From Escherichia coli (GTDB taxonomy: Bacteria; Pseudomonadota; Gammaproteobacteria; Enterobacterales; Enterobacteriaceae), in assembly GCF_003334355.1 (NCBI RefSeq), contig NZ_QOWP01000024.1: a stretch of DNA of 64,000 nt, one strand, 5' to 3'. The notes beneath the pieces were generated by a model. The model did not search any database. It was not told the DNA's origin and worked only from the letters and a program-made list of their open reading frames with translations. Position 1 is the first letter of the stretch. Each line of letters opens with the position of its first letter. Below, piece after piece: positions 1-1,634 of this stretch. The position numbers were made by a program, and so were the translations under genes.

Positions 1-350
1 GATATAGCCTATATGCCTATGATGCGGAGGAATGAATGTGATGGGAGTGATGTATCTGAATAGTTGAAAAACCGCAGACACGCCTTATGCAAGAACGTGC
101 TGCGGTTGGCTGGTAAATTTTTCGATAGTGTGAGTATTGAATGATTTCCAGCCGTTCTTGATTTTACGCATAAATCCATGAAAAAACTACTTATCTGTTG
201 GGGAGTTTTTTTGGGGCATATATGGGACAGAAATAGGCCCCAGATAGACACTGAGATCGAACTTAGGATGCTTTTTAAAAAATGCAACTATCTGAAAAAA
301 CCTAGAAAACGCCAAGGAAACCACAGGATGGGAAAAAACACCTGTGAATT
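1..350. mobile_element. Probable prophage (Qin-type) boundary sequence abutting the truncated ydfJ; no recognisable gene
   Basis: The downstream MFS ORF lacks its N-terminus and an in-frame stop lies just upstream of its ATG. In K-12 ydfJ is recalled as interrupted by the Qin prophage. The two ORFs here (9..287 -, 178..387 +) have no recognisable similarity. A hairpin with T-run at about 64-104 reads as a minus-strand terminator. Confidence 0.3.
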
Positions 351-1634
351 ATGGATTTCCAGTTATATTCGCTCGGCGCAGCGTTAGTGTTTCATGAAAT
401 ATTTTTTCCTGAATCATCAACGGCAATGGCGTTAATTCTGGCAATGGGAACCTACGGTGCAGGTTATGTGGCGCGTATTGTCGGAGCATTTATTTTCGGC
501 AAAATGGGCGACAGAATAGGGCGTAAAAAAGTGCTCTTTATTACCATCACCATGATGGGGATCTGTACCACCTTAATTGGTGTGTTACCGACCTATGCAC
601 AGATTGGTGTTTTTGCACCCATCTTGCTGGTGACGTTGCGTATTATTCAGGGGTTGGGTGCAGGTGCGGAAATTTCCGGTGCCGGTACGATGCTGGCGGA
701 ATATGCGCCAAAAGGTAAGCGCGGAATTATCTCCTCATTTGTGGCTATGGGAACTAACTGCGGAACCTTGAGCGCAACGGCAATCTGGGCCTTTATGTTC
801 TTCATTCTCAGTAAAGAGGAACTGCTGGCGTGGGGATGGCGTATACCGTTCCTGGCGAGCGTTGTCGTGATGGTCTTTGCTATCTGGTTGCGTATGAATC
901 TGAAAGAAAGCCCGGTCTTTGAGAAGGTTAACGACAGTAACCAACCGACAGCAAAACCTGCACCTGCTGGTAGCATGTTCCAGAGCAAATCCTTCTGGCT
1001 GGCAACAGGGCTGCGTTTTGGTCAGGCGGGTAACTCCGGGTTAATTCAGACTTTCCTTGCAGGCTATTTAGTGCAGACGTTATTGTTTAACAAAGCAATT
1101 CCAACAGATGCATTGATGATCAGTTCGATTCTCGGCTTTATGACCATTCCGTTCCTTGGTTGGTTATCCGATAAAATTGGTCGCCGGATCCCGTATATTA
1201 TTATGAATACCTCCGCGATTGTGCTGGCATGGCCAATGCTTTCTATCATTGTAGATAAAAGCTATGCCCCGAGCACCATTATGGTTGCACTGATTGTGAT
1301 TCATAACTGTGCGGTGCTGGGATTATTTGCTCTGGAAAACATTACCATGGCAGAAATGTTCGGCTGTAAAAACCGCTTTACCCGGATGGCTATTTCTAAA
1401 GAAATTGGTGGTCTTATCGCTTCCGGTTTTGGTCCTATCCTGGCGGGTATTTTCTGCACCATGACGGAATCCTGGTATCCGATCGCCATTATGATCATGG
1501 CATATTCAGTGATTGGTTTAATCTCTGCGCTGAAAATGCCAGAGGTGAAAGACCGTGATTTAAGTGCGCTGGAAGACGCTGCGGAAGATCAACCGCGTGT
1601 TGTAAGAGCTGCGCAACCTTCCAGAAGTCTGTAA
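351..1634 (+). pseudogene. ydfJ: N-terminally truncated MFS metabolite:H+ symporter (ShiA/ProP-like)
   Basis: The 427-aa ORF aligns by eye to ShiA starting inside TM1 (ShiA WYDFLLYG... versus MDFQLYSLG...). About 25-30 N-terminal residues are missing and a TGA lies immediately upstream in frame. Confidence 0.7.

Follow-up and report, generated by a model that had tools for sequence, protein, structure and literature searches.

The truncated ydfJ gene and the DNA preceding it

The DNA analysed here, referred to below as the window, is a stretch of 64,000 nucleotides from Escherichia coli (contig NZ_QOWP01000024.1 of assembly GCF_003334355.1). Its left end carries an incomplete copy of ydfJ, which encodes an MHS-family transporter of the major facilitator superfamily, preceded by about 350 bp that are homologous to the right end of the K-12 prophage Qin. 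Downstream of ydfJ lie ydfI, ydfZ, rspR, ydfG, dcp and further genes, that is, the ydf region of E. coli. No convincing gene was found in window 1–350, which contains two adjacent hairpins, a pair of short repeated motifs and, at its right border, a phage attachment (att) core (Table 1). Two open reading frames (ORFs) overlapping this stretch were regarded as spurious: one on the plus strand (178–387, 69 amino acids, MKKLLIC...) crosses the att core and has a start region that is unconserved in the corresponding arms of O157/O103-type prophages, and one on the minus strand (9–287, 92 amino acids) traverses both hairpins and a stretch bearing indels.

The ydfJ ORF of the window was compared with that of strain ET650, in which the gene is uninterrupted. 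All 427 residues of the remnant were identical to residues 29–455 of the intact protein (455 amino acids), and the peptide absent from the remnant (residues 1–28) is MTIEKHERSTKDLVKAAVSGWLGTALEF. The ATG at 351 is the native Met29 codon; it lies within the att core and in a conserved segment (EFMDF), and the 28 codons before it have been lost. A single codon (ATT) separates this ATG from a TGA that is contributed by the phage and stands in the ydfJ frame, at a position where the uninterrupted site reads CTT GAA TTT. A reading of the letters alone, made without database searches (the sequence-only reading), had pointed out this stop and had also described the preceding 350 bp as lacking homology to the missing N-terminus. 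Both statements hold: when the 28 missing residues were sought in all frames of window 1–350 they were not found, the best ungapped match having 6 of 28 identities.

The same reading had placed the start of the ORF inside the first transmembrane helix (TM1) relative to ShiA-type homologs, which is roughly right and can be refined. The alignment of the remnant with the ShiA profile begins at position 37 of 438 (position 12 for the intact protein), whereas with the MHS profile TIGR00883 it covers positions 7–400 of 400 (the intact protein begins at position 1) and scores 453.5 bits, above the curated cut-off of 443.45. With residues 1–28 gone, the remnant lacks a complete N-terminus with the whole of TM1, and the profile alignments indicate that the lost part comprises an N-terminal cytoplasmic tail, which is not conserved, and a few conserved positions at the start of TM1. 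The boundaries of TM1 could not be read from a structure because a sequence search of the Protein Data Bank with intact YdfJ returned no solved homologue at E <= 1e-5. In related genomes the equivalent gene carries the RefSeq label "incomplete; missing N-terminus".

Table 1. Features at the left end of the window, with strand and the evidence for each
Feature	Position	Strand	Basis
Right end of a Qin-family (mEp460_ev081-like) lambdoid prophage, P-arm side of attR	1–350	.	identity to phages and to K-12 Qin
Hairpin 1, intrinsic-terminator-like; stem 107->70, U5 tail 71->67	67–107	-	folding, covariation
Hairpin 2, candidate rightward terminator; stem-loop 107–154, then U-rich GUUCUUGAUUUUAC	107–170	+	folding, covariation
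Minimal conserved P arm, common to all sampled ydfJ-integrating prophages	212–350	.	junction alignment
Two tandem candidate arm-type integrase sites, TGGGGCA and TGGGACA	212–218, 223–229	+	11-bp spacing
Phage-derived TGA stop in the ydfJ frame	345–347	+	direct reading of sequence and translation
att core, 11-bp ungapped attP/attB identity TTATGGATTTC	349–359	.	four-way att comparison
ydfJ remnant, codons 29–455 of the MHS-family transporter YdfJ	351–1634	+	427 amino acids, ORF intact

Attachment sites and the origin of the truncation

Window 1–350 aligned over its full length with free phages, namely PhiR42_1 (99.7% identity), mEp460_ev081 (99.4%), HannyBb and Tritos (98–99% each), and window 1–420 was 99.05% identical to the Qin/ydfJ junction of K-12. 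This agrees with the earlier proposal that the end of Qin abuts ydfJ here in K-12, where ynfT, ydfK, pinQ and tfaQ lie directly upstream. Chromosomal ydfJ sequence runs from base 360 onward. The junction with which the window had been said to begin is real, but it lies at 345–359, and base 1 is situated 350 bp inside the prophage. In all four free phages the P arm and core are collinear with window 1–359 (98–99.7% identity); immediately to the right of the core they carry the genes for an IntQ-type integrase and an excisionase, whereas the window has ydfJ. In mEp460_ev081, the 3' end of int lies no more than 40 bp beyond the arm, with the excisionase gene next, and both proteins were matched in PHROGs. 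The intQ remnant of K-12 is 99% identical to the integrase of mEp460_ev081, and in strain CX12 the integrase and the excisionase are located at attL.

The att sites were compared four ways, the window providing attR, mEp460_ev081 attP, ET650 attB, and CX12 and K-12 attL. The core is an 11-bp ungapped identity of attP and attB; if one gap is allowed, it extends leftward to TGAATT(T) at 345–350, with 15 of 16 positions matching. The attB site reads ...GCGCTTGAATTT ATGGATTTC CAGTTATAT... and attP reads ...ACCTGTGAATT ATGGATTTC AAGAGTCAT..., so that to the right of the core the phage continues with P' (AAGAGTCAT...) and int, and the window with ydfJ (CAGTTATAT...). The attL sequence (GAATTTATGGATTTCAAGAG) joins the left side of attB to the right side of attP, and attR joins the left side of attP to the right side of attB. 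In detail, attL has the attB-type TTT together with the P' sequence AAGAG, whereas attR has the attP-type TT together with the B' sequence CAG. Because attL keeps TTT and attR keeps TT, the crossover can be placed inside ATGGATTTC or in the two T's before it. With an uninterrupted ydfJ strain included, as the sequence-only reading had proposed, the alignment thus puts the breakpoint within 349–359, and the four sequences read as a clean reciprocal exchange within TTATGGATTTC. The attL product consists of the 28 native YdfJ amino acids followed by MDFKSHTC and a stop. The core agrees with a published att sequence of 18–19 bp (PMC8112680).

Two further repeats were seen in the comparison. In mEp460_ev081 (locus L004, 4468–4488) there is a second core-like copy, ACCTGTGCATTATTGTTTTCA, which shares 18 of 21 positions with the real core, ACCTGTGAATTATGGATTTCA; this copy falls within the 3' end of the int coding sequence, 127 bp rightward of the core, and is absent from the window. 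The repeat GATTTCCAG, found at 143–151 and again at 354–362, was judged to be due to chance because its first copy also occurs in phages with other att sites.

The arm is homologous to the right end of Qin up to the core, the insertion lies in ydfJ, attL and attR are reciprocal, and a short core is identical in attP and attB, as in att sites of the lambda type. Window 1–362 is therefore, almost certainly, an attR (P-O-B') that arose when a Qin-family lambdoid phage integrated site-specifically into codons 27–31 of ydfJ. The truncation might instead have come from a deletion, an insertion sequence (IS) element or another island, or be apparent only, with an alternative start and the N-terminus encoded upstream. 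IS elements do occur near the locus in some strains (IS1 within ydfJ in ET5; in PSS-12 and CX12, IS elements that erode the prophage), although they give none of these origins direct support. Against such origins, identity to free phages is 99+% over the upstream 350 bp and extends exactly to the shared core, lysogens carry the reciprocal attL, and no upstream frame encodes the N-terminus. A non-phage origin of this kind has hardly any probability left.

In the proposed course of events, an IntQ-type tyrosine integrase, encoded next to the excisionase, would exchange strands between attP and attB inside TTATGGATTTC. This would carry int, xis and the first 28 codons of ydfJ to the far (attL) end of the prophage and bring the P arm against the rest of ydfJ. 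The P arm supplies the in-frame TGA and, with the promoter and N-terminus of ydfJ lost, a promoterless ORF of 427 codons beginning at Met29 remains.

The junction, the loss of 28 codons and the att sequence have been published, and the feature as such is already known. Qin has been reported to use a specific site at the 5' end of ydfJ, its integration costing the gene its promoter and 28 N-terminal codons, and prophages occupy the Qin locus in about half of the strains examined (PMC6379469). Likewise, ydfJ has been described as prophage-occupied in many strains including K-12, with the 18–19-bp att sequence defined in the legend of S7 Fig (PMC8112680). The window thus shares with K-12 Qin the integration site, the core, the 28 lost codons and a P arm that is 99% identical over window 1–420, and its related genomes share the upstream neighbours ynfT, ydfK, pinQ and tfa. 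However, K-12 Qin has lost head, tail and J/lom/stf genes that are complete in the closest genomes of the window. Possible novelty is confined to three side observations: the two-hairpin module with its conservation, the candidate arm-type sites, and a remnant that shows no decay. For annotation, window 1–350 should be treated as phage DNA and ydfJ as the 3' remnant of a prophage-interrupted gene.

The extent of the shared arm was examined in an alignment of nine lysogen junctions with attP. O157/O103-type prophages were conserved from 212 to the core and unrelated to the left of about 212, and the match of an O103:H2 genome begins exactly at 212. Matches in the sampled genomes fell into classes beginning at window base 1, 72, 86 or 212; the inner arm is therefore common to different prophages, whereas the outer arm is not. 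The prophages of Shiga toxin-producing E. coli (STEC) termed PPydfJ (O157, O26, O103 and O111; Nakamura et al. 2021, PMC8112680) have the same att core, the same inner arm (212–350) and both TGGGRCA motifs. In contrast, to the left of about 212 their outer arm has a DinI-like gene and NleG effector genes, whereas the window type has the two-hairpin module followed by ynfT-ydfK.

The TGGGRCA motifs at the left border of the inner arm are candidates for arm-type integrase sites. The motif matches the 8.35-kb phage locus four times, always within 225 bp around the core. Each arm carries two of the matches, on the same strand and spaced by 11 bp, and both P-arm sites were invariant in every sampled junction. 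This arrangement resembles that of the arm-type sites of lambda, and the pairs may have the same function. Against this stands their total number, which is not above chance (4 found, 2.3 expected), and only clustering, spacing and invariance argue for function.

The organization resembles that of lambda Int and attP in several respects. Both have a tyrosine integrase and Xis encoded beside attP, a short core identical to attB, a P arm of about 140 bp in which candidate arm sites are repeated, and, past this arm, a hairpin on the int strand. They differ in the core, the host target and the arm motif, and the hairpin of the window is not homologous to lambda sib. In lambda, attB lies between gal and bio.

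A conserved two-hairpin module in the phage arm

A terminator-like hairpin on the minus strand had been suggested at about 64–104 by the sequence-only reading. Such a hairpin (hairpin 1) is indeed present within a few nucleotides of that position, with its stem at 70–107 and a U-run from 71 to 67. It forms 16 pairs in two stems around one small bulge, followed by UUUUU, and has a folding energy of -20.7 kcal/mol (z = -4.33); none of 200 shuffled sequences was as stable. It abuts a second hairpin. For hairpin 2 the plus strand gives the more stable fold (-23.5 kcal/mol, z = -3.17, against -15.2 kcal/mol for the minus strand), and the G.U pairs of its inner stem are possible only on the plus strand.

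Conservation of the two structures was assessed in 12 diverse phage copies. Compensatory changes were found in 7 of the 21 predicted pairs of the module and concern both stem-loops; in hairpin 1, several pairs had changed on both sides. For hairpin 1, eight cells of the alignment that are G.U pairs on the minus strand would be C.A mismatches if read on the plus strand. Moreover, window 125–172 (~45 nt) was almost invariant among these phages, which range from lambda to Citrobacter phage Chris1. The module as a whole (~100 bp, window ~67–170) matched 210 records of lambdoid phages, in one orientation throughout. Its usual place is where rightward late genes (tail fibre, tfa, cargo) meet leftward genes of the int side.

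Hairpin 1 has the stable G+C-rich stem, the U-tract and the compensatory changes of a rho-independent terminator, and the module is probably a back-to-back pair of convergent terminators. Two observations speak against so simple an account. Firstly, a simple terminator scan did not flag hairpin 1, probably because its stem has an internal bulge; the scan yielded only a weak 6-pair candidate at 256–238. Secondly, the U-tail of hairpin 1 is absent in some phage copies, including those of lambda and mEpX2, and termination may therefore not be its universal role. If the module does consist of two terminators, it would keep leftward transcription from the int side apart from rightward transcription of the late genes while the phage is free; after integration it would protect ynfT-ydfK against transcription that enters from the chromosome.

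The conservation of the 125–172 segment exceeds what a plain terminator would need. The segment may act at the boundary of late and early genes in lambdoid genomes as a regulatory RNA or as a site for protein binding, for example, or it could be a conserved linker that drives mosaic recombination. A literature search on the function of the ea47-ea31 intergenic region of lambda, where a copy of the module lies, gave nothing useful, and no described function for the module was found in it.

Further copies of the module were seen at L008 1487–1612, L010 1184–1309 and L011 590–715, among others. Among E. coli prophages, mosaic breakpoints were observed at the edges of the module, with matches starting at 72 or 86, or ending at 123 or 168.

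The position of hairpin 1 invites comparison with the sib/tI element of lambda. Its identification as lambda sib was first suggested by a BLAST result that listed the HK97 "sib retroregulation site" under the match, and it was rejected when the annotated site proved to be adjacent and not homologous. The annotated sib of HK97 (TTAGCGCAAG...CTTGCGCTAATTTTTT) is the classic lambda tI hairpin at 21042–21091, whereas the HK97 homologue of the module lies at 20943–21041, with sib immediately to its right and no overlap. Hairpin 1 might still be a functional equivalent of sib/tI, that is, an RNase III-sensitive structure that would lower the stability of int mRNA as long as the phage is free and would lose its link to int on integration. 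It lies on the int-coding (minus) strand 245–285 nt beyond the core, its arm ends up opposite int in the prophage, and between core and hairpin there is no other strong minus-strand terminator apart from the weak candidate mentioned above. HK97, however, carries the module and sib side by side, the lambda copy of the module (24162–24256, between ea47 and ea31) is 3.5 kb from attP, a comparison of the window with the att region of lambda (27000–29000) gave no match, and several phages have the module behind dinI-like or cargo genes and not behind int. Hairpin 1 thus has the position of sib, beyond attP on the int strand and parted from int by integration, without homology to the sib hairpin of lambda or HK97, and a sib-like role appears rather unlikely.

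An Rfam scan of window 1–1800 and of the upstream region of CX12 gave sub-threshold matches only, which beyond CssrB were noise. Membership of the CssrB family (RF02799), a Shigella small RNA (sRNA), was rejected at 23.4–25.4 bits against a gathering threshold of 76, and only the 3' hairpin fitted well, on the plus strand (window 69–104; also L001 19967–20104). This 3' hairpin is nearly identical to the hairpin of the window on the opposite strand, which suggests that CssrB may derive from a similar prophage end. A literature search on CssrB returned only unrelated papers.

Distribution of the junction and state of the ydfJ remnant

Among 5,426 complete E. coli genomes, the ydfJ remnant was preceded by a homologue of this phage arm in 3,181 (about 59%), and an uninterrupted attB was found in 2,009 (37% empty sites). 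At this junction the sugar-acid gene cluster rspAB-ydfJ-ydfI is divided in about 59% of complete genomes, which matters when the regulation of ydfJ and ydfI is interpreted and when prophages of this hotspot are typed.

The closest genome to the window was PSS-12 (99.9% identity over 25 kb), which is collinear with it over 48.5 kb except for one IS5. K-12 was 98.9% identical over 7.7 kb, and the source strain is thus not K-12. Upstream of the junction, PSS-12 has ynfT, ydfK, pinQ, tfaQ, a tail fibre gene, lom, J and full sets of tail, head and terminase genes, and CX12 resembles it but has kept int, xis and attL in its prophage, with ynfT, ydfK, pinQ and tail-fibre genes immediately upstream of ydfJ. 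By comparison with these genomes, the DNA upstream of base 1 in the source genome is probably phage DNA as well. A weakness of this extension is that the presence and completeness of the prophage beyond base 1 rest on near relatives, and the nearest of them, PSS-12, has lost its early region, int and attL in IS-associated deletions; for want of an attL there, the comparison took attL from CX12 and K-12.

The left part of the PSS-12 prophage has been replaced by IS1 and IS1203 (L005 12986–15567). The deletion also removes the chromosomal genes ynfA, rspA and rspB and the 5' end of ydfJ; the prophage therefore cannot excise, and ydfJ cannot be restored in this strain.

The state of the remnant was examined in ten interrupted alleles (the window, L001, L002 and L020–L026). 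The 427-codon ORF was intact in all ten, and pN/pS, the ratio of non-synonymous to synonymous polymorphism, was 0.00–0.10 among them; two lysogens, for example, differed by 21 synonymous and no non-synonymous substitutions. A possible explanation is that truncated ydfJ is still expressed from Met29, by a promoter in the phage arm or by read-through, and is kept by selection as a working or partly working transporter. Integration would then convert ydfJ to a phage-controlled or N-terminally shortened form and would not inactivate it. Besides the intact ORFs and the almost exclusively synonymous substitutions, the retention of 394 of the 400 MHS profile positions, with a score above the curated cut-off, agrees with this explanation, as does a preprint that lists ydfJ as differentially expressed in K-12 after DicC induction, by which the remnant is transcribed. 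However, the allelic divergence is at the level of the E. coli core genome and may predate each integration, and recent or reversible integrations explain the synonymous pattern equally well. Since the hotspot holds many prophage types and 37% of sites are empty, occupancy is probably often recent or reversible. In addition, a scan of window 1–700 found no sigma-70-like promoter, no Shine-Dalgarno sequence stands at a normal distance before ATG 351, the first conserved TM1 positions are lost, and the sample comprised only ten alleles. We consider a functional, selected remnant quite improbable. Both of the less conventional readings, a ydfJ remnant that is still selected and functional and a 125–172 segment that is more than a terminator, seem unlikely.

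Some differences and features were noted in the remainder of the window. The IS5 of PSS-12 lies between mgtS and ydeE (L020 10118–11311; window ~10113) and is absent from the window. The dgcZ gene has an internal stop in PSS-12, whereas the ORF of the window (8788–9678) is intact. At 9690–9903 on the plus strand, beside the small-protein genes mgtS and mgtT, there is a strong match to the Hfq-binding sRNA STnc560 (282 bits), the sole above-threshold Rfam family within the 64 kb. Finally, the segment between eamA and marB (window ~12445–18620) contains a cluster of genes for a GntR regulator, phosphotransferase system (PTS) components IIB, IIC and IIA, a carbohydrate porin and a 6-phospho-beta-glucosidase, as in PSS-12, where the annotation marks the genes for IIC and the porin as frameshifted.

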